A program made the translations under genes and the position numbers. This document shows positions 3,185 to 62,365 of a DNA stretch of 64,000 bases, in pieces. This DNA is from Escherichia phage vB_EcoM_KAW1E185, in sequence record NC_054922.1, one strand, 5' to 3'. The notes beneath the pieces are model-generated. The model ran no database searches. It was given only the letters and a program-made list of their open reading frames with translations, and had not been told where the DNA came from. The number at the start of each line of letters is the position of its first letter. Position 1 is the first letter of the stretch.

Positions 3185-3658
3185 TTATTTGATTTGTTTA
3201 GCAGACCAAATGCGGTCTTTGATAATTTTTTGGATGTCTTCAACATATTCAAGAGAGTGAACATGTGGGTTATCTTTGAAACTATAAGCACGAGCTAGCT
3301 TTTGGCCTTCAGTTTTGATTACTAAAAGCTCTTTAAGGATAGCTTCATATTTGGAGATAATTCCTTTAACGATATTTTTCTCTTGTGTGACTTTAGGATC
3401 TGCTTTAGGAGCAGGTTTACCCGAAGCCTTTGCAAAAGCAGCGCCAGTAGCAACTAAACTTTTCCAGGCCATACTAACTGCATTCCCTGTAAATCCTTCG
3501 GCTTTCATATCACGAGCAAATTGGAATCGTGATTCATCGGAAGCATCTTTATAGGAATATTTACCCGCGGCAATGGCTGCTTTTGCGACAGCTTGAATTT
3601 CGGTGCTAGATGCTTCATTTAACACCGCTTCATTTAAAAATTGAGCATATGATTTCAT
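3185..3658 (-). CDS. internal-protein-like protein with N-terminal capsid-targeting leader (MKSYAQFLNE), 157 aa
   Basis: ORF-track ORF trimmed to the ATG at 3658 (AGGAAA Shine-Dalgarno upstream); leader resembles T4 internal-protein leaders ending in a gp21 L/I-x-E cleavage site; late promoter upstream. Confidence 0.6.
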   Translation of the reverse strand: MKSYAQFLNEAVLNEASSTEIQAVAKAAIAAGKYSYKDASDESRFQFARDMKAEGFTGNAVSMAWKSLVATGAAFAKASGKPAPKADPKVTQEKNIVKGIISKYEAILKELLVIKTEGQKLARAYSFKDNPHVHSLEYVEDIQKIIKDRIWSAKQIK

Positions 3659-3696
3659 CTTATTTCCTGTTTTAATTTGTAGATTTAATATACTAA

Positions 3697-3704
3697 TATT
3701 TATA
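3697..3704 (-). promoter_or_regulatory. late promoter TATAAATA upstream of the 3185..3658 gene
   Basis: Plus strand reads tatttata, i.e. TATAAATA on the minus strand, about 39 nt upstream of the ATG. Confidence 0.5.
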
Positions 3705-3732
3705 CCAAAAAGCCCCAACCTTTCGGTCGGGG
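3705..3732 (-). terminator. intrinsic terminator; copy 2 of the duplicated 36-bp element (loop inverted to TTTC)
   Basis: Plus strand reads ataccaaaaagccccaacctttcggtcggggctaag at 3702..3737; ends the tRNA/stable-RNA transcription unit. Confidence 0.6.
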
Positions 3733-3740
3733 CTAAGCCT

Positions 3741-4043
3741 TGCGGCAACCTTGTCGGGGTTCCACCTGCTAAGGCAAGTGTTTGTACGAAACGCCGGGAT
3801 TCGAACCCGGTTATTAAGTAGTTGACGCTACTCAATATTTTTAAAAGGCCATATCTCGACCATATCCGAACGTTCCGTCAAAAACGCTACTCGGCTTACG
3901 GCAAAGATATTTCCTCGAATCGATAATTCGGTGCGCCGTTTCTGCTGTGATGTAAGAGGGCATCAATAAACGCAAAGATTATTAACGCAATTCCTTACTC
4001 AGGGAACATCAGTCCGACGACTTACCGGTAGCGACCCGGTTTC
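3741..4043 (-). ncRNA. putative stable small RNA(s), comparable to T4 species 1/2 RNAs downstream of tRNA-Arg
   Basis: No ORF; T-arm-like CCGGGTTCGAATCCCGG; an 8-bp long-range pairing (ACGGAACG with CGTTTCGT) could form an acceptor-like stem; boundaries approximate. Confidence 0.35.
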
Positions 4044-4394
4044 TTAATATTCTTTTAAAGCATCAATCTGTTTACGGCGTTCACGCCATAAATCAATTGC
4101 TTCATACGCGGATTCAGCATTTCGAATTAGCCGGCATTTATGTAAAGACTTATGATTTTGATATTGTGTAGATAACGGAATTTTATCTAAAAGGTCTTTA
4201 CGTTCAAAGTATTCGTAACCATCTAAGCCAAATGAACGATTTTTGAGAAATTGCCAATGACCAAATTCGTTTTGAATATAAATATAATCCGCATGTTGAT
4301 AAAGTAAATTAATTTCACGAAATGAGATATGTTTTTCATATTCATTGAAGTAAAATGTTAAATCATGAACTACTAAATAAACATTACCTTTCAT
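4044..4394 (-). CDS. hypothetical protein, 116 aa, between tRNA-Arg and the stable-RNA region
   Basis: ORF track; no motif recognised. Confidence 0.45.
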   Translation of the reverse strand: MKGNVYLVVHDLTFYFNEYEKHISFREINLLYQHADYIYIQNEFGHWQFLKNRSFGLDGYEYFERKDLLDKIPLSTQYQNHKSLHKCRLIRNAESAYEAIDLWRERRKQIDALKEY

Positions 4395-4412: not shown

Positions 4413-4488
4413 TGGTCGAGGCAGTAGGGATCGAACCTACGACCTAGGACTTAGAAGGTCCTTGCTCTTCCTTCTGAGCTATGCCCCG
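4413..4488 (-). tRNA. tRNA-Arg (anticodon UCU)
   Basis: Hand-folded cloverleaf: anticodon arm AGGAC-CTTCTAA-GTCCT, T-loop GGTTCGATCC, encoded CCA. Confidence 0.85.
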
Positions 4489-4492
4489 TAAT

Positions 4493-4568
4493 TGGGGTGA
4501 CCGATGGGAGTCGAACCCATGACTACGAGAATCACAATCTCGAGTTCTACCAACTGAACTACGGCCAC
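4493..4568 (-). tRNA. tRNA-His (anticodon GUG)
   Basis: Anticodon arm CGAGA-TTGTGAT-TCTCG, T-arm ATGGG-TTCGACT-CCCAT, discriminator C, encoded CCA. Confidence 0.8.
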
Positions 4569-4682
4569 ATTAATACCTACTCCAACAATCAAGATGTCTT
4601 CACACGAAATTAAGAGAAGAGTGATCAGTTCAACCCCTATAATCGCGTCAAGTAGATATTAATGTGACAGTTGTCACAAATT

Positions 4683-4757
4683 TGGCGGACGTGATAGGAT
4701 TCGAACCTATAACCAATCGCTTAACAGGCGATCGCTCTGCCATTGAGCTACACATCC
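4683..4757 (-). tRNA. tRNA-Asn (anticodon GUU)
   Basis: Anticodon arm ATCGC-CTGTTAA-GCGAT, T-loop GGTTCGAATCC, encoded CCA. Confidence 0.8.
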
Positions 4758-4761
4758 AAAT

Positions 4762-4848
4762 TGGTGGGGAGTGGTGGAGTCGAACCACCCGAGTCGCAAT
4801 GACAATGAATTTACAGTCCACACCGCTACCTCTACGGGATAACTCCCC
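4762..4848 (-). tRNA. type II tRNA, probably tRNA-Tyr (anticodon GUA); D-arm non-canonical
   Basis: 87 nt; acceptor GGGGAGT/ACTCCCC, loop CTGTAAA, long variable arm, T-arm GGTGG-TTCGACT-CCACC, encoded CCA; anticodon stem has two G-U pairs. Confidence 0.6.
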
Positions 4849-4857
4849 AAATTAATT

Positions 4858-4932
4858 TGGTGGCCCTGGGTGGAATTGAACCACCATCTGGCGATTATGA
4901 GTCGCTTGCTTGAACCTTCCAGCTACAGGGCC
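4858..4932 (-). tRNA. tRNA with anticodon CAU (Ile2 or Met), in the position of T4 tRNA-Ile
   Basis: Acceptor GGCCCTG/CAGGGCC, anticodon loop CTCATAA, T-loop GGTTCAATTCC, encoded CCA. Confidence 0.75.
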
Positions 4933-4933
4933 T

Positions 4934-5009
4934 TGGTGCTGATTGACGGAATCGAACCGCCGACCTTCTCATTACAAGTGAGTTGCTCTACCTACTAAGC
5001 TAAATCAGC
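4934..5009 (-). tRNA. tRNA-Thr (anticodon UGU)
   Basis: Acceptor GCTGATT/AATCAGC, anticodon loop CTTGTAA, T-loop GGTTCGATTCC, encoded CCA. Confidence 0.85.
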
Positions 5010-5014
5010 AAAAC

Positions 5015-5104
5015 TGGCGGAGGCGATAGGATTTGAACCTATGAGTCGCCGGAGCGACTGCCGGTTTTCAAGACCGGTGCATTAAACCACTCTGCCACGC
5101 CTCC
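5015..5104 (-). tRNA. tRNA-Ser (anticodon UGA), type II
   Basis: 90 nt; anticodon arm CCGGT-CTTGAAA-ACCGG, long variable arm, T-loop GGTTCAAATCC, encoded CCA. Confidence 0.85.
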
Positions 5105-5110
5105 AAATAT

Positions 5111-5761
5111 TTATATATTGTTAATTTGATTTAGAATTCTTTTTGCTTGAGTATGACTTACGCCAATATGCTTAGCATATTTAGACAATTCGCCACGTTT
5201 AGAAAAATCATATAATTTAGAAATTTCTATTCTTCTTTTTCTTTCATCCGCAGAAACTTTTGCTTCGTTTGCTTTTGCTATTTTACGTTTAGCTTCTTGA
5301 GAATGAGTTTTACCAGCAAAGCCATTCTTCATTAATCCATTTGAAGACCATCCTTTTAATTTTCCGTTAGAATGTGCCTTTTTAACACCCAATGAAATTA
5401 ATTCGCGTTGCTGATCTGTCATAGGATAATTATTTATATGGTCCCATCCACCTTCACCTCCAAGTTTTAAATTATACACATCTGGTCTATTTAAAAACTC
5501 TTCTGTGACAATATTTTTCTCGGCTTCAAGCATAGATTCTTTATCGTCAAAATACTCTAATATTTCTTTAGAAAAATTTTCTATACCATATTTATCTTGG
5601 GCTCTTTTTAATAATTTACCAGAACCCATATATCCATCATCTAAATTTTCGGTAGAATGCACACCAATATAAATTTTATTATTAATTTTATTTGTTATTT
5701 TATAAAGATAAAAATGCATATCAGTCCCTAATAAAGAACTGAGCGTCTCACGACGAGTCAT
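5111..5761 (-). mobile_element. segB: GIY-YIG homing endonuclease (SegB-like) wedged between tRNA-Gly and tRNA-Ser
   Basis: N-terminal GIY-YIG module YLYKITNKINNKIYIGVHS plus basic C-terminal region; lies inside the tRNA array as T4 segB does; true start may be the internal Met at 5719. Confidence 0.8.
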
Positions 5762-5765
5762 AAAT

Positions 5766-5839
<74 letters not shown>

Positions 5840-5844
5840 AAATT

Positions 5845-5931
5845 TGGTGCGAGAAGTGGGACTCGAACCCACAAGGAAATCATTCCGCAGCATTTTAAGT
5901 GCTGTGCCTTTACCAATTTGACCATTCTCGC
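5845..5931 (-). tRNA. tRNA-Leu (anticodon UAA), type II
   Basis: 87 nt; acceptor GCGAGAA/TTCTCGC, anticodon arm CAGCA-CTTAAAA-TGCTG, T-loop GGGTTCGAGTCCC, encoded CCA. Confidence 0.85.
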
Positions 5932-5932
5932 G

Positions 5933-6005
5933 CTGGGAATAAAGGACTCGAACCTTTGCATCTAGCAGTCAAAGTGCTATGCCTTACCAACTTGGCTAAT
6001 TCCCA
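5933..6005 (-). tRNA. tRNA-Gln (anticodon UUG), no encoded CCA, abuts tRNA-Leu
   Basis: Acceptor TGGGAAT/ATTCCCA, anticodon arm TAGCA-CTTTGAC-TGCTA, T-loop AGGTTCGAGTCCT; only 1 nt separates it from tRNA-Leu. Confidence 0.8.
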
Positions 6006-6091
6006 ATTATTAACAAAGGCTCTCAAACAAGAACCCTTGATGATAGAGGGTATTAATCAGTGCGGTATGAGTTAATAATAACAAATAATTC

Positions 6092-6607
6092 TTAAAGCAA
6101 ATTAAACATTTTAACGGTCGGCAAAACAATTTCTTCTTCTATATAAGAGTATTTAACACTCTCAACTACACGCAAAAAATCATAATCATAATACTCAGAA
6201 GCATTACCTAAAATATTAATAAGTCCTTCAAGCACTTTATTACCATTCACAAAGAATAAGTCAAATACGCGTTCTTCGTCTTCTTCGGATTTATTACCAA
6301 GGTCAACTTCTATATCAAAGACCTTTTTAATGAATTCTGGATAAAGTTGTTCTGAGAACAGTCCTTCAACCAAGTATTCATAAATAAAAAGCGATTGCTC
6401 GCTGAACAAGCCATTACCACAATAACGTTCAGCTTTAGTACTAGAATGTCTACTTTTAAACTTCTTTAAAAGATATTGAAATTGTAAGATTTCATGCTCT
6501 TCTACGCCAAACAGTGTTTTAGTTTTATAGTTGTCACCATCATTTTCCCAGGTAGTGGCATCAATTACGTAACCCTGTGGAATTGTAGTACCTAAACAAA
6601 TATTCAT
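6092..6607 (-). CDS. hypothetical protein, 171 aa, with duplicated GLFSEQ motif
   Basis: ORF track; acidic; lies in the variable locus between the tRNA array and ipI. Confidence 0.5.
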   Translation of the reverse strand: MNICLGTTIPQGYVIDATTWENDGDNYKTKTLFGVEEHEILQFQYLLKKFKSRHSSTKAERYCGNGLFSEQSLFIYEYLVEGLFSEQLYPEFIKKVFDIEVDLGNKSEEDEERVFDLFFVNGNKVLEGLINILGNASEYYDYDFLRVVESVKYSYIEEEIVLPTVKMFNLL

Positions 6608-6897
6608 TTGCTCACCATATTAATGTAAGTATATTCAATACATTCAAGACCCAAAGGATTCTTGAAAATATCATATTCAAGAGGACCTTTTTCCGTTTCA
6701 ATAAAGAAATCAAAATTTACTGTATTAAATTTACGGTCTTCCTTCACTAATTTAACCTGAGAAGATGAACGGTCAATGTAAACCTTTTCAACTTCAAAAC
6801 ATGTTAAAATGCCATAATCATCAATCAAGGCTTTAGCTGCTTCTTGATCATATTTATATCCATTTTCAATGGATGATACTTTAGCATAAAGAATCAT
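6604..6897 (-). CDS. hypothetical protein, 97 aa
   Basis: ORF track; start overlaps neighbouring stop. Confidence 0.5.
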   Translation of the reverse strand: MILYAKVSSIENGYKYDQEAAKALIDDYGILTCFEVEKVYIDRSSSQVKLVKEDRKFNTVNFDFFIETEKGPLEYDIFKNPLGLECIEYTYINMVSK

Positions 6898-6899
6898 TA

Positions 6900-7310
6900 T
6901 CAGCCTCTATCAACGATAGCATGAGTATGGGCATTTACGATTTGCCACCAGTCGAAACGATTGGAACCATAATCTGGTTTATTTTCATTTTCTTTAATGA
7001 TATCACGCAGTTTATCTTCTGTTTCAGCATACGCAATTAAATCATCATATCCGCCACAAGGATAATAATTATCACCTGCGAATAAAAGAAAATTTACCTT
7101 AGATGGATTTACGTAATAATGGTCTTTAGGATATTTAGTTCCTCTCCAATCAGTTACTTCAACATAACGGTAAGAAAATCCATTTTTACTTTCAATCCAA
7201 CTCCACGCTTCAAAAGGAGTATTAAAAACTTTATCAGGTATTAAATTACCTTCAAAATGAGAAGGATTTGCATAATCCCCGGCATAAACATAATATTCGT
7301 TAATACTCAT
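6900..7310 (-). CDS. hypothetical protein, 136 aa
   Basis: ORF track; tightly packed with neighbours. Confidence 0.5.
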   Translation of the reverse strand: MSINEYYVYAGDYANPSHFEGNLIPDKVFNTPFEAWSWIESKNGFSYRYVEVTDWRGTKYPKDHYYVNPSKVNFLLFAGDNYYPCGGYDDLIAYAETEDKLRDIIKENENKPDYGSNRFDWWQIVNAHTHAIVDRG

Positions 7311-7496
7311 TTATTCACCTTTAGAAATTTTATCCATAACAATAGCAATTAAACCAATTAAAAATGCTACTACAAGTGAAAACACATTTTCTGCTGTAGT
7401 CAATAATCCACATATAAATCCAACAAACATTGAAAAACTAAAAGCGGAAGCAGAAATTGCAATAGCAACATTTCGAATTAATTCACAACGTTTCAT
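7311..7496 (-). CDS. small hydrophobic membrane peptide, 61 aa
   Basis: ORF track; almost entirely hydrophobic; preceded by an early promoter set in an inverted repeat. Confidence 0.4.
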   Translation of the reverse strand: MKRCELIRNVAIAISASAFSFSMFVGFICGLLTTAENVFSLVVAFLIGLIAIVMDKISKGE

Positions 7497-7524
7497 TTTA
7501 TTCTCCTCAGTAGTAGATAGGGTA

Positions 7525-7555
7525 ATAGTATCACTACCCTATCTAAAAGTAAACT
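7525..7555 (-). promoter_or_regulatory. early-type promoter with -10 TACTAT set inside a perfect 10-bp inverted repeat (agatagggta / taccctatct)
   Basis: Minus strand reads GTTTACT-N17-TACTAT; inverted-repeat arms at 7515..7524 and 7535..7544. Confidence 0.5.
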
Positions 7556-7788
7556 TATTTTTTACGAAAAATTGATTTATATTTATCAGCCCATTTCTCG
7601 ATGACTTTTTCTGGTCCATAGATAACAAAATAATCACCAAACTCTTCACCACCGAGTTGACCGAAATTATCTAATGCATCACGAAGAACTCCATGAGGCA
7701 TTTCGCCCATTTTATCTTTCTTACCAATGTAAATAAACTCAACTTTTACATCAGCAGCTTCAGCAATAAATTCTTGATACGTTTTCAT
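7555..7788 (-). CDS. small internal-protein-like protein with capsid-targeting leader MKTYQEFIAE, 77 aa
   Basis: ORF-track ORF trimmed to ATG 7788 (GGAGA Shine-Dalgarno); leader is the canonical T-even internal-protein leader ending in the gp21 cleavage motif I-A-E. Confidence 0.55.
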   Translation of the reverse strand: MKTYQEFIAEAADVKVEFIYIGKKDKMGEMPHGVLRDALDNFGQLGGEEFGDYFVIYGPEKVIEKWADKYKSIFRKK

Positions 7789-7824
7789 TTTATTCTCCAA
7801 TTTCACATTTGTTTTGATAGGGCA

Positions 7825-7854
7825 ATAGTATCACTACTAAAACCCCGTGTAAAC
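7825..7854 (-). promoter_or_regulatory. early-type promoter (GTTTACA-N17-TACTAT) for the 77-aa leader-bearing gene
   Basis: Shares the repeated core aatagtatcactac and the motif gtaaacaactttgtgaaatt with the ipI promoter. Confidence 0.5.
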
Positions 7855-7873
7855 AACTTTGTGAAATTGTTTA

Positions 7874-8161
7874 TTACAAAAGATTTTTAGCAATAATCTT
7901 GAGATGTGCTGCAGAAATGTGTTTAGCTTTAAACAACGCAGTTTCTTCGGCAGGAGAGATAACGATTGTAGCACCATCCTTTTTAGCAGACCACCCATCA
8001 CCTAGGTAAACAGTACCTTTGATTTCTTCGCCATCAACCAGACTAATCATTGGTTTACCTTCTCGTCCTTTATTTGCTTTAATAACTTCAGAAGTAAGAG
8101 TAGCTTCGGTAATGGTAGAAACCGGGGTAGTTGTAGAAGTAAATTCTTTAAATGTTTTCAT
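7874..8161 (-). CDS. ipI: internal protein I (IPI), injected inhibitor of GmrS/GmrD-type restriction
   Basis: 95 aa; leader MKTFKEFTSTTTPVSTITE followed by ATLTSEVIKANKGREG..., recognised as T4 IPI. Confidence 0.9.
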   Translation of the reverse strand: MKTFKEFTSTTTPVSTITEATLTSEVIKANKGREGKPMISLVDGEEIKGTVYLGDGWSAKKDGATIVISPAEETALFKAKHISAAHLKIIAKNLL

Positions 8162-8191
8162 TTTATTTTCCTAATTAATTTTGATGAGATA

Positions 8192-8221
8192 ATAGTATCA
8201 CTACCTCATCAGTATGTAAAC
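8192..8221 (-). promoter_or_regulatory. early-type promoter for ipI, -10 flanked by inverted repeat tgatgag / ctcatca
   Basis: Minus strand reads GTTTACA-N17-TACTAT; inverted-repeat arms at 8182..8188 and 8205..8211. Confidence 0.5.
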
Positions 8222-8233
8222 AACTTTGTGAAA

Positions 8234-8930
<697 letters not shown>

Positions 8931-8931
<1 letters not shown>

Positions 8932-9656
8932 TATAGTACCTTTAGTGTATTTTTAATTTTAGAAAAAAGTTCTTCAAGAGAACCATCGTTTGTAATTACT
9001 AAATCGCCATCACGAATTGGCAATCCAGCTTCTGTAATATGCGTATCATTGGATTTTTGACCAGGACGAACTACATGAATTACTGTAGCACCCATCGCCC
9101 TAGCCGCATCCATTTCATGATCCTGACGGGTATCAGGAACGATATAATAATCATAACCTGAGTTAAATTTATCAAGATAATCTAAAGCAAATAATTTTAC
9201 CCAGTACATGCGGTCGAAGTTATTAACAATCAAATCCGTACCTAGGGCTTGCATCAGACGACGGACTGACCATTGATCTTCAATATTATTTATAACGTCA
9301 GTAATTTTGTTAAATGCTACGAAATTAACTGATTCTTTTCCTTCGTCATCAAAAACAAACACACCTTTAATTGGGCTTTTACCATTAAGATAGCAAAATG
9401 CTTGTTCCATAATCGTGATTACTTCTAATTTAGTCAGATTTAAATTAGTCTCACGATCATAGTCAATTCCTTCAAACTCTTTACGAGTTAAGCAAGGATA
9501 GTCGGTGTTTGCTGCAAATACTCCCCATGCATAAGCCAATGCATCCTTAATAGGACCAGCAAGTTGGTATTTAACTGCAGAATAATTGCTCATGATAAAA
9601 TCAGCAGTAGTATCTTTTCCACTACGCTTTACACCGCTTAAAAAGATTAGTTTCAT
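8931..9656 (-). CDS. 1: gp1 deoxynucleoside monophosphate kinase
   Basis: 241 aa from ATG 9656; P-loop GVKRSGKDT; T4 gp1 length and position. Confidence 0.9.
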
Positions 9657-61984: not shown

Positions 61985-62308
61985 CTACTTTCCAGTGCTG
62001 CATGTCAAGTTTACCAACTTTTTCATCTTCTCAATTAAGCGTTCGGCACGTTGGCGAGCTGTAACATAATACCATTCACCTAATTCATTTTGTTCAATTT
62101 TTCCAACGATTACTGTATTCAATTCATAAATCCAACCAGTAAAGAAATTATGAACTTGAATTGTAAAGGTGAAATCTGTTCCCATACCTTCTGTTGTTTC
62201 TACTTCAATAATATCACCTTCAACTGCCATTAAGAACCACATAGTTTCATCATATTTACCATTGAAGCATTTAGTTTTAACTGCAGCGTTCAGATTAATC
62301 GTTTTCAT
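61985..62308 (-). CDS. hypothetical protein, 107 aa
   Basis: ORF track. Confidence 0.55.
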   Translation of the reverse strand: MKTINLNAAVKTKCFNGKYDETMWFLMAVEGDIIEVETTEGMGTDFTFTIQVHNFFTGWIYELNTVIVGKIEQNELGEWYYVTARQRAERLIEKMKKLVNLTCSTGK

Positions 62309-62335
62309 TTTATTCTCCTTTGTTTGTGTAAGATA

Positions 62336-62365
62336 ATACTATCACAAAGGAACTATACTGTAAAC
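62336..62365 (-). promoter_or_regulatory. early-type promoter (GTTTACA-N17-TAGTAT) with flanking inverted repeat tttgtg / cacaaa
   Basis: Shares the motif gtaaacaactttgtg with the promoters at 7825..7854 and 8192..8221. Confidence 0.5.

Follow-up and report, generated by a model that had tools for sequence, protein, structure and literature searches.

The internal protein (IP) locus of the T-even phages is a classical hyperplastic position (Repoila 1994, as cited in PMC2839356 and PMC12373910). T4 Ip1, Ip2 and Ip3 block GmrSD type IV enzymes, a different one each; inhibition of type IV enzymes was predicted by the authors of that work to be the theme of every protein encoded at the two IP loci (PMC12373910). 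Work on the leader of IPII and IPIII showed that residues 4 and 7 are important in targeting and residues 8 and 10 in processing (PMC9026906). The elements found at the IP locus of T-even phages are, according to Arbiol 2010, analogs and not homologs of the PeSL (promoter-early stem-loop) elements, and have T4-type early promoters (GTTTAC...TACTAT), weaker AT-rich stems and no polyG/polyC tracts (PMC2839356). A 2025 HIDEN-SEQ preprint describes Bas37_0260, a phage protein required for resisting the McrBC of E. coli K-12 (10.1101/2025.11.20.689424). Transposon insertions in its gene were depleted on K-12 BW25113 (mean 8.4 vs 309.3 reads, log2FC 5.04) and not on strains without type IV systems, the deletion mutant was specifically McrBC-sensitive, and the gene was non-essential in the reference library, being needed only where McrBC is present (10.1101/2025.11.20.689424).

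Here we analysed a 64,000-nt stretch of Escherichia phage vB_EcoM_KAW1E185 (NC_054922.1), referred to below as the window. The locus was assigned to a Tequatrovirus, that is a T4-like coliphage; it is 99.9% identical to that of phage R5505 and is matched by 839 phage records. Between the tRNA array, which ends at 6005, and ipI we found the five tightly packed minus-strand ORFs of the original prediction (171, 97, 136, 61 and 77 aa), with the sizes and places given there, and its assignment of the position to the hyperplastic T-even IP locus agrees with Repoila 1994 as that work is cited in PMC2839356 and PMC12373910. The first four ORFs are separated by a 4-nt overlap, a 2-nt gap and a direct abutment, followed by gaps of 58 nt and 85 nt that are occupied by promoter/stem-loop elements. 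These are real genes and not chance ORFs, since all five match PHROG families (E 1e-35 to 1e-68) and the 77-aa gene is under purifying selection, with dN/dS values of 0.10-0.33 against its relatives. The genes of the locus, and the first of two segments that distinguish it from T4, are as follows:

6092 to 6607, minus strand: 171-aa ORF of the phage accessory family phrog_2290 (PHROG match), missing in T4
6112 to 6625, unstranded: 514-nt segment that covers almost the whole 171-aa gene and the final codons of trna.2; T4 has 7 nt instead (blastn)
6604 to 6897, minus strand: trna.2 ortholog (97 aa), 96.7% identical to T4 Trna.2 over 91 aa; phrog_2023
6900 to 7310, minus strand: trna.3 ortholog (136 aa), 100% identical to T4 Trna.3; phrog_1411
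7311 to 7496, minus strand: trna.4 ortholog (61 aa), small and hydrophobic, 100% identical to T4 Trna.4; phrog_1692
7555 to 7788, minus strand: ip6-type internal protein gene (77 aa), matching phrog_8111 “internal virion protein” at E 2e-50
7874 to 8161, minus strand: ipI (95 aa), precursor of a GmrSD inhibitor, 100% identical to T4 IPI; Pfam IPI_T4 (PF11634), E 7e-54
8234 to 8689, minus strand: 57B/Acb1, an anti-CBASS phosphodiesterase that forms the conserved flank upstream of the IP slot; Pfam Acb1 E 3e-60, 100% identical to T4 57B

The locus is syntenic with that of T4, with trna.2, trna.3, trna.4, ipI and 57B at 97-100% identity, and only the 77-aa and 171-aa genes have no T4 counterpart. 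We identify the region as the internal-protein locus on the ipI side, made up of a conserved backbone and two extra modules that are missing from T4, and the backbone runs from 57B/acb1 through the IP slot to trna.4, trna.3, trna.2 and the tRNA genes. In 28 related loci the flanks are constant and the slot is occupied by zero to two genes with a leader, which come in ten or more sizes.

Three of the four ORFs that had been called unknown are therefore T4 trna.2, trna.3 and trna.4. As in T4, where these genes sit upstream of the tRNA cluster, their order and spacing are conserved; the last six residues of Trna.2 differ from the T4 protein because T4 is without the adjacent 514-nt segment bearing the 171-aa gene. 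The 61-aa trna.4 product was said to be almost purely hydrophobic, which holds for its middle (about residues 9 to 54; GRAVY 1.22 for the protein) and not for its short, charged ends, and it is probably a membrane protein, judging from this profile. All three genes are non-essential in T4 (trna.2 on K-12), and a pull-down of DRT1 enriched two phage proteins, one of them T4 Trna.2, a result not pursued by the authors. The three genes are leaderless and form a stable flank rather than a variable slot.

The 77-aa gene lies between 57B/ipI and trna.4, with two of the three repeat copies of the locus on its sides. Its length is counted from the ATG; an upstream GTG start would give 83 aa. Codons 1-10 (7759-7788) encode MKTYQEFIAE, which with the following A is identical to the capsid-targeting leader of IPII and IPIII, bearing out the view that this is a second leader-tagged protein, and it fits the pattern in which targeting depends on Tyr/Phe4 and Phe7, and gp21 processing on Ile/Leu8 and Glu10. 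Removal of the leader would leave a near-neutral mature product of 67 aa (pI 6.8) that begins at Ala11 (AADVKVEF...). Although this mature part had been held to match nothing recognisable, its family has a name, Ip6 (phrog_8111), and comprises 249 phage records, with the annotation Ip6 or ip6 in several of them, including JK1 and VR25. Homology of the mature domain to IPI, IPII or IPIII was rejected, as the leader alone aligns: BLAST against T4 IPI covers residues 1-16 only, and a Pfam search of the 77-aa protein gave no domain at E<=0.1, including the IPI_T4 model that the neighbouring ipI matches at 7e-54. A literature search found no paper joining “Ip6” with “internal head protein” and no proteomic report on the Ip6 family. 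A search by sequence for relatives with solved structures found none for the 77-, 171-, 136- and 97-aa proteins. Structure prediction gave a compact alpha/beta model for the 77-aa protein (AF2, pLDDT 81.6, beta-alpha-beta-beta-alpha-beta) and a confident fold with no known structural match for the 171-aa protein. Within the Ip6 family the N-terminal half is invariant, including the loop GKKDKMGEMP, and two allele classes, A and B, differ mainly in residues 46-70. This phage carries class A (GGEEFGDYFVIYGP...), and dN/dS is 0.10-0.14 within a class and 0.26-0.33 between classes.

The 77-aa gene is carried on a cassette that is bounded by repeats, and the IP slot contains three copies of an early-promoter/stem-loop element. 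The relevant features are:

7516 to 7554, minus strand: element copy 1, upstream of trna.4; GTTTAC-N12-TAGTGATACTATT with a 14-bp hairpin, repeat family D1
7816 to 7854, minus strand: element copy 2, upstream of ip6; TTTACA-17-TACTAT with TG, hairpin -12.3 kcal/mol
8183 to 8221, minus strand: element copy 3, upstream of ipI; hairpin -14.8 kcal/mol, z -2.9
7535 to 7782, unstranded: segment missing in T4 (blastn vs T4), which with one repeat copy makes up the 292-nt ip6 cassette

The sequence GTTTAC-N12-TAGTGATACTATT occurs in three exact copies, all at the IP locus, where chance would give 0. The hairpin arms vary between the copies with the pairing kept, and the hairpin of copy 1 is at -18.5 kcal/mol (z -4.4). 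A promoter-like element at 62335-62365 was considered as a fourth member and discarded, as the early ORF that follows it (107 aa) is unrelated and has no leader. The edges of the ip6 cassette are direct repeats of about 44 nt (7491-7534 and 7783-7826; repeat family D3, spacing 292), and positions 5510-5553 of the T4 locus align to both of them (blastn). Ip6 is 84-86% identical among phages whose flanking genes share just 48-67%, which indicates lateral transfer, and the repeated elements are likely to be recombination sites allowing IP cassettes to be swapped between phages. A late promoter is missing immediately in front of ip6. The closest TATAAATA on the minus strand lies within gene 1 (9287-9294), and for ip6 to be expressed late transcription would have to run through two hairpins.

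The region is, in our judgement, quite probably best explained as a conserved locus that carries an ip6 cassette, whose injected product would have a McrBC-type target, and the 171-aa module. The 77-aa protein is most likely packaged, cleaved after Glu10 and injected as an inhibitor of type IV restriction. It would be made with MKTYQEFIAE, which would direct it into the prohead core; the prohead protease gp21 would then cut after Glu10 (I-A-E/A), leaving the 67-aa alpha/beta protein in the capsid; and the mature Ip6, entering with the DNA, would at once block a host type IV modification-dependent restriction enzyme. For the class A allele of this phage that enzyme is most probably McrBC, to judge from its alignment with Bas37_0260, in which 62 of 77 residues are identical (81%, gapless, E 1e-46); the McrBC phenotype itself comes from one preprint and a different allele, the class B allele of Bas37. 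Both Bas37 and AdolfPortmann (Bas44), the two genomes checked, have a T2/T6-type beta-alpha-glucosyltransferase, and this context is drawn from AdolfPortmann as a relative that is near-identical at the locus, the type carried by the phage itself lying outside the window. Modification of the T2/T6 beta-alpha-glucosyl type reportedly leaves part of the hydroxymethylcytosine (hmC) unglucosylated. McrBC targets DNA with non-glucosylated hydroxymethylcytosine, so an inhibitor of McrBC would be useful to such a phage.

The class A protein might instead be injected against another modification-dependent nuclease, such as a divergent McrBC or one of the GmrSD subtypes; its specificity surface would then be the C-terminal half, which is variable. 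Specificity could indeed differ from that of Bas37_0260, because the two proteins differ at 15 positions, concentrated in residues 46-70, the part with the highest dN/dS. T4 Ip1-3 offer a precedent, each acting strictly on a single GmrSD variant and giving no protection against the others (PMC12373910), and since this phage already has IPI, stacked inhibitors with different targets would be the norm at the locus. Orthologs with an identity as high as 81% and an invariant N-terminal half usually share a target, however, and E. coli K-12 was the host on which the class A BASEL phages Bas43 and Bas44 were isolated and grown, and we regard a different target as unlikely.

The 171-aa gene, the second of the two extra modules, probably shares a transcript with trna.4-trna.2 that runs on into the tRNA array. 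Its family is widespread and phage-only (some 1000 sequence clusters and 579 phage records), and the protein is acidic (pI 4.5) with an invariant motif, GY..TTWENDGDNYKT (the WENDGDNYKT motif). It had no significant match to Pfam models, NCBIfam models or solved structures. The duplicated GLFSEQ motif noted earlier is present, at residues 66-71 and 82-87, but the duplication is not conserved, because the first copy is T(P/L)FSDC in most relatives; as the two copies also use different codons, an internal repeat was ruled out. The neighbours of distant homologs are phage early accessory genes (NAMPT, Dda-like helicase, RNA ligase) and give no functional clue. A role as an accessory protein in host interaction or anti-defence would be a weak guess.

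The original prediction extended a host-range or anti-restriction role to all five ORFs. It holds up for the 77-aa protein, with its McrBC-inhibiting ortholog, and, the DRT1 pull-down of T4 Trna.2 aside, nothing ties the other four to such a role. A single anti-defence island, in which the 171-, 97-, 136- and 61-aa proteins would also be counter-defence or host-range factors, would suit the neighbouring acb1, ipI and ip6, which are anti-defence genes, the enrichment of T4 Trna.2 with DRT1, the dispensability or absence of all four genes in T4 and Bas37 on K-12, and the acidic, phage-restricted and variably present 171-aa protein. We nevertheless consider it improbable: none of the four proteins has the leader or homology to any known anti-defence protein, trna.2, trna.3 and trna.4 are conserved backbone and not variable cargo, and insertions in bas37_0257-0259 were not significantly changed (q = 1.0) in one K-12 vs clinical-isolate comparison of the HIDEN-SEQ work. 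That the 77-aa protein is a packaged structural or DNA-condensing head protein with no anti-defence role, the K-12 phenotype of its ortholog being indirect, is very improbable, since, although IPIII influences head assembly rate and burst size (PMC9026906) and internal proteins were long thought to neutralise DNA charge, the mature protein is not basic, the gene is missing from T4 and many relatives, and Bas37_0260 is dispensable unless McrBC is present.

Taking the injected, McrBC-directed Ip6 as the preferred reading, the locus and the 77-aa gene are largely explained by what is already known, namely a variable IP locus, an Ip6 family and a McrBC-blocking relative. The locus is a textbook phage “anti-restriction palette”, in which small capsid-borne proteins, injected before genes are expressed, disarm enzymes that cut modified DNA, and Ip6 adds no new principle to it. 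The orthology with Bas37_0260 does give a prediction of McrBC inhibition for about 250 sequenced phages, therapy candidates included, in many of which the gene is labelled merely hypothetical or as a generic internal protein. It is a more speculative and rather unlikely thought that the Ip6 classes defined by residues 46-70 form a type IV specificity series and that the 171-aa protein, with its unmatched fold, is an unrecognised counter-defence factor. Elsewhere in the window, outside the classical IP loci, a gene with a late promoter at 3185-3658 has a leader similar to that of the internal proteins and may be a third internal-protein position; its 157-aa product starts with MKSY, and its mature N-terminus would be expected after FLNE or VLNE. 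If both ideas are true, T4-like phages hold more injected or anti-defence cargo, and at a larger number of places, than the two classical IP loci.

The closest described system is that of Bas37 (phage KarlGJung, MZ501089). Bas37_0260 has the same length of 77 aa, the same leader and the same PHROG family, and its 234-nt gene likewise has a different IP gene upstream and a trna.4 ortholog 58 nt downstream. The two differ by the 15 substitutions that separate class A from class B here, and in the upstream gene, which is of the T4 ipI type in our phage and an unrelated 85-aa leader-bearing gene in Bas37. With the T-even internal proteins the 77-aa gene shares its small size, its non-essential character, its place in an IP locus with early-promoter/stem-loop elements, a leader identical to that of IPII/IPIII and the predicted mode of action of packaging, gp21 cleavage and co-injection with the DNA; its mature domain has no detectable sequence similarity to those of IPI, IPII and IPIII, and its ortholog targets McrBC where the T4 internal proteins target GmrSD. 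The IP-locus elements match the description of the T-even analogs by Arbiol 2010 (PMC2839356). They resemble the PeSL cassettes of RB49 and phi1 (Arbiol 2010, PMC2839356; Comeau 2014, PMC4122927) in placing an early promoter and stem-loop around small non-essential ORFs, and in that the boundaries of the ip6 indel relative to T4 fall in repeats. They differ from PeSL in having a promoter of the T4-early type (GTTTAC-17-TACTAT), which agrees with the sigma-70 consensus at 9 of 12 positions, and stems that are AT-rich (-12 to -18.5 kcal/mol) instead of GC-rich (GGGG...CCCC).

The window belongs to a T4-like coliphage (Tequatrovirus), and its nucleotides 6000-8200 match 839 phage records, with 99.9% identity to phage vB_EcoM_R5505 and 99.5% to AdolfPortmann (Bas44). 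All five minus-strand open reading frames of the original prediction were found at the expected sizes and places, flanked by tRNA-Gln (ending at 6005) and ipI, and each of the five has a PHROG match (E 1e-35 to 1e-68):

6092-6607, minus strand, 171-aa ORF, phrog_2290
6604-6897, minus strand, 97-aa ORF, trna.2, 96.7% identical to T4 Trna.2
6900-7310, minus strand, 136-aa ORF, trna.3, 100% identical to T4 Trna.3
7311-7496, minus strand, 61-aa ORF, trna.4, 100% identical to T4 Trna.4
7555-7788, minus strand, 77-aa ORF, ip6, phrog_8111
7874-8161, minus strand, ipI, 100% identical to T4

The order in the same stretch of T4 is tRNA-Gln, trna.2, trna.3, trna.4, ipI, 57B, 57A, gene 1. Four of the ORFs had been taken as unknown, but since trna.2, trna.3 and trna.4 are near-identical to T4 (96.7-100%), three of these are ordinary conserved T4 genes, and T4 lacks just two of the five, the 171-aa gene and the 77-aa gene. 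Alignment at the DNA level gave clean breakpoints around window 7535-7782, which has no counterpart in T4, while T4 segment 5510-5553 matches both 7491-7534 and 7783-7826, so that ip6 lies on a 292-nt unit with direct repeats at both ends.

The 77-aa product had been proposed as a second leader-tagged internal protein (IP), and this is borne out by its leader, MKTYQEFIAE, which is identical to the capsid-targeting sequence of IPII and IPIII. In that leader, residues 4 and 7 are important for targeting, and processing by gp21 involves residues 8 and 10 (PMC9026906). A cut at the predicted site behind Glu10 would give a 67-residue product of approximately 7.7 kDa and pI 6.8. This mature part was thought to match nothing; it is a member of phrog_8111 ("internal virion protein"), a family found in 249 phage records and annotated as Ip6 or ip6 in JK1, VR20 and VR25, for which no Pfam, NCBIfam or PDB relative was found. 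The dN/dS of ip6 against its relatives is 0.10-0.33. The N-terminal half is invariant in the Ip6 alignment, including the loop GKKDKMGEMP, and residues 46-70 define two allele classes, A (GGEEFGDYFVIYGP, the window) and B (AAEDYGDKIVVTGP).

We compared 28 related loci, of which eight were GenBank records and twenty were IMG/VR contigs. 57B and trna.4 are present in 28 of 28, and trna.3 and trna.2 in most. Between 57B and trna.4 there are from zero to two genes whose products start MK(T)(Y/F)(Q/K)EF, in at least ten sizes from 70 to 110 aa. In VR25-type phages (three IMG/VR contigs, positions ~3707-3940) Ip6 is 84-86% identical to that of the window, whereas identity falls to 48-67% for gp1, trna.4 and trna.3, a disparity that points to lateral transfer of the ip6 cassette between Tevenvirinae lineages.

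The function of Ip6 can be approached through Bas37_0260, its ortholog in phage KarlGJung (Bas37, MZ501089), whose 77-aa class B product aligns with that of the window without gaps at 81% identity (E 1e-46). The 234-nt gene (145553-145786 of MZ501089) lies between an IP gene and a 186-nt trna.4 ortholog, and its product resembles IPI-III in the N-terminal signal alone (10.1101/2025.11.20.689424 and supplement). Insertions in bas37_0260 make the phage strongly defective on E. coli K-12 BW25113, but not on clinical isolates or on K-12 without McrA, McrBC and Mrr, and deletion of the gene sensitised the phage to McrBC specifically; in one comparison of K-12 with a clinical isolate the reads were 8.4 versus 309.3 (log2FC 5.04) (10.1101/2025.11.20.689424). 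[quoted passage not shown] 2025, PMC12373910). Taken together, the Bas37_0260 phenotype, the orthology and the T4 precedent suggest that the 77-aa protein is an injected type IV restriction inhibitor whose most probable target is McrBC. For the allele in the window we infer packaging, cleavage, injection and action on McrBC, and the differences between classes A and B could change specificity. A further detail in favour of McrBC is that Bas37 and AdolfPortmann, which is near-identical at this locus, both carry a T2/T6-type beta-alpha-glucosyltransferase, a gene seen in these relatives and lying outside the span of the window. As Lehman and Pratt are said to have found in 1960, T2/T6-type modification leaves some hmC unglucosylated, and this hmC would therefore be exposed to McrBC.

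The broader suggestion of host-range or anti-restriction factors thus holds for the locus and, through Bas37_0260, for the 77-aa gene, but is unsupported for the other four ORFs. 57B, 100% identical to T4 57B, encodes Acb1, an anti-CBASS enzyme (Pfam E 3e-60). Three genes with known or inferred anti-defence roles stand in a row at 7555-8689 (minus strand), namely 57B/acb1 (anti-CBASS), ipI (anti-GmrSD) and ip6 (anti-McrBC by orthology), which makes the IP slot part of a small counter-defence cluster. The Bas37 gene annotated "internal head protein ipI" (2464-2721 of the extracted MZ501089 locus) is not IPI and encodes an unrelated 85-aa leader-bearing protein (MKTFKEFATKTTITE followed by SSHG...). 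One HIDEN-SEQ comparison showed depletion of insertions in this gene in the clinical isolate (log2FC -2.09; 10.1101/2025.11.20.689424), which hints at another target.

The 171-aa protein is acidic (pI 4.5), bears no leader and belongs to phrog_2290, with 579 phage records that include T2 (87%), Klebsiella phages (one homolog annotated RB69ORF151c), Aeromonas phages and some jumbo phages. A profile search returned 1006 representative clusters at E<=1e-3; all 52 members sampled match phrog_2290 alone, with no consistent Pfam family among them. AlphaFold gives a confident model (pLDDT 89, pTM 0.82), and conserved positions are G12, W20-E21-N22-D23-x-D25 (WENDGDNYKT), G64-N65 and F144-x-R146-V147. 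The duplicated GLFSEQ motif noted earlier is indeed present as a pair, but it is not conserved, the first copy being T(P/L)FSDC in most relatives. Distant homologs have early accessory genes of phages as their neighbours. The stretch from the 171-aa stop codon to tRNA-Gln showed no terminator-like site, and so the gene probably shares a transcript with trna.4-trna.2 that runs on into the tRNA array. In place of the 514 nt at window 6112-6625, which amount essentially to the 171-aa gene, T4 has 7 nt, again with clean breakpoints, and because of this Trna.2 differs from its T4 counterpart in the last six residues only. The T4 Trna.2 C-terminus (...IVNTYHHKW) resembles a deletion scar (T4 locus 4629-4644 versus window 6092-6625). 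The segment is not in T4; the gene occurs in T2, the RB69ORF151c-annotated Klebsiella phage homolog and many T4-like phages. T4, without it, is probably the derived state.

Each of trna.2, trna.3 and trna.4 is non-essential in T4 on K-12, and insertions in their Bas37 orthologs gave no significant change (q = 1.0) in one comparison of K-12 with a clinical isolate (10.1101/2025.11.20.689424). Two phage proteins were enriched with the defence protein DRT1, and T4 Trna.2 was one of them (PMC13275509). Trna.4, being small and hydrophobic, is probably a membrane protein.

Beyond the tRNAs, a 157-aa basic protein (pI 9.5; 3185-3658, minus strand) starts MKSYAQFLNE/AVLNE/A, a capsid-targeting-like leader with Y4, F7, L8 and E10. 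Within 3659-3745, ahead of the ORF, are a GC hairpin, a T4 late promoter of perfect sequence (TATAAATA) and a Shine-Dalgarno site. Both the leader and the hairpin-plus-late-promoter layout are retained in homologs from Dhakavirus PSD2002 (MKTYNEFLTE) and Jiaodavirus Nispero (MKFKEFLAE). The family, phrog_2280, has 510 phage records, is "hypothetical" in 25 of the 25 listed and is absent from T4; the protein looks like a candidate internal protein, so far unannotated and encoded away from the two classical IP loci. Window 3702-4044 matches, at 98% identity, the T4 segment with the small stable RNAs rnaC and rnaD, and a 216-aa TTG-initiated ORF running from the MKSY gene into this region was rejected as spurious. 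A 116-aa ORF (4044-4394, phrog_3355), absent from T4, adjoins tRNA-Arg. The tRNAs (4413-6005, minus strand) are Arg, His, Asn, Tyr, Met(cat), Thr, Ser, Gly, Leu and Gln, a set unlike the eight of T4; the CAT-anticodon tRNA is tRNA-Ile (ATA) in the BASEL record annotation. Between tRNA-Ser and tRNA-Gly lies a 216-aa GIY-YIG homing endonuclease gene (5111-5761, minus strand), 83% identical to T4 SegB and 100% to a Bas43 gene. R5505, AdolfPortmann and T4 have tRNA-Pro at this position, and none was found within the window; T4 segB is placed elsewhere, between tRNA-Arg and tRNA-Ile.

The same 39-66-nt element lies upstream of trna.4, ip6 and ipI. Its core, GTTTAC-N12-TAGTGATACTATT, occurs in three exact copies at this locus only, with 0 expected by chance. 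Two copies score as TTTACA-17-TACTAT promoters with extended TG, and every copy folds into a hairpin (-12.3 to -18.5 kcal/mol) that has the -10 region at its centre and arms that vary in sequence but keep their complementarity. The Shine-Dalgarno/ATG context is repeated too (repeat family D3), which favours the ATG start of ip6 (77 aa) over an upstream GTG (83 aa). Immediately upstream of ip6 there is no late promoter; on the minus strand the closest TATAAATA is at 9287-9294, inside gene 1. A fourth, imperfect promoter-like copy (GTTTAC...TGATAGTATT, 2 mismatches; 62335-62365, minus strand) precedes a 107-aa early ORF (61985-62308) that has no capsid-targeting leader.

The locus is already known, with identical alleles in GenBank and one ortholog of experimentally assigned function; IP-locus architecture has been known since 1994, and the Ip6 family is already named and widespread. 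The repeated elements at this locus are the early-promoter/stem-loop elements seen at the IP loci by Repoila et al. (1994). IP-locus elements have been called analogs of the promoter-early stem-loop (PeSL) recombination cassettes, from which they differ in using T4-type early promoters and AT-rich stems (Arbiol et al., PMC2839356).
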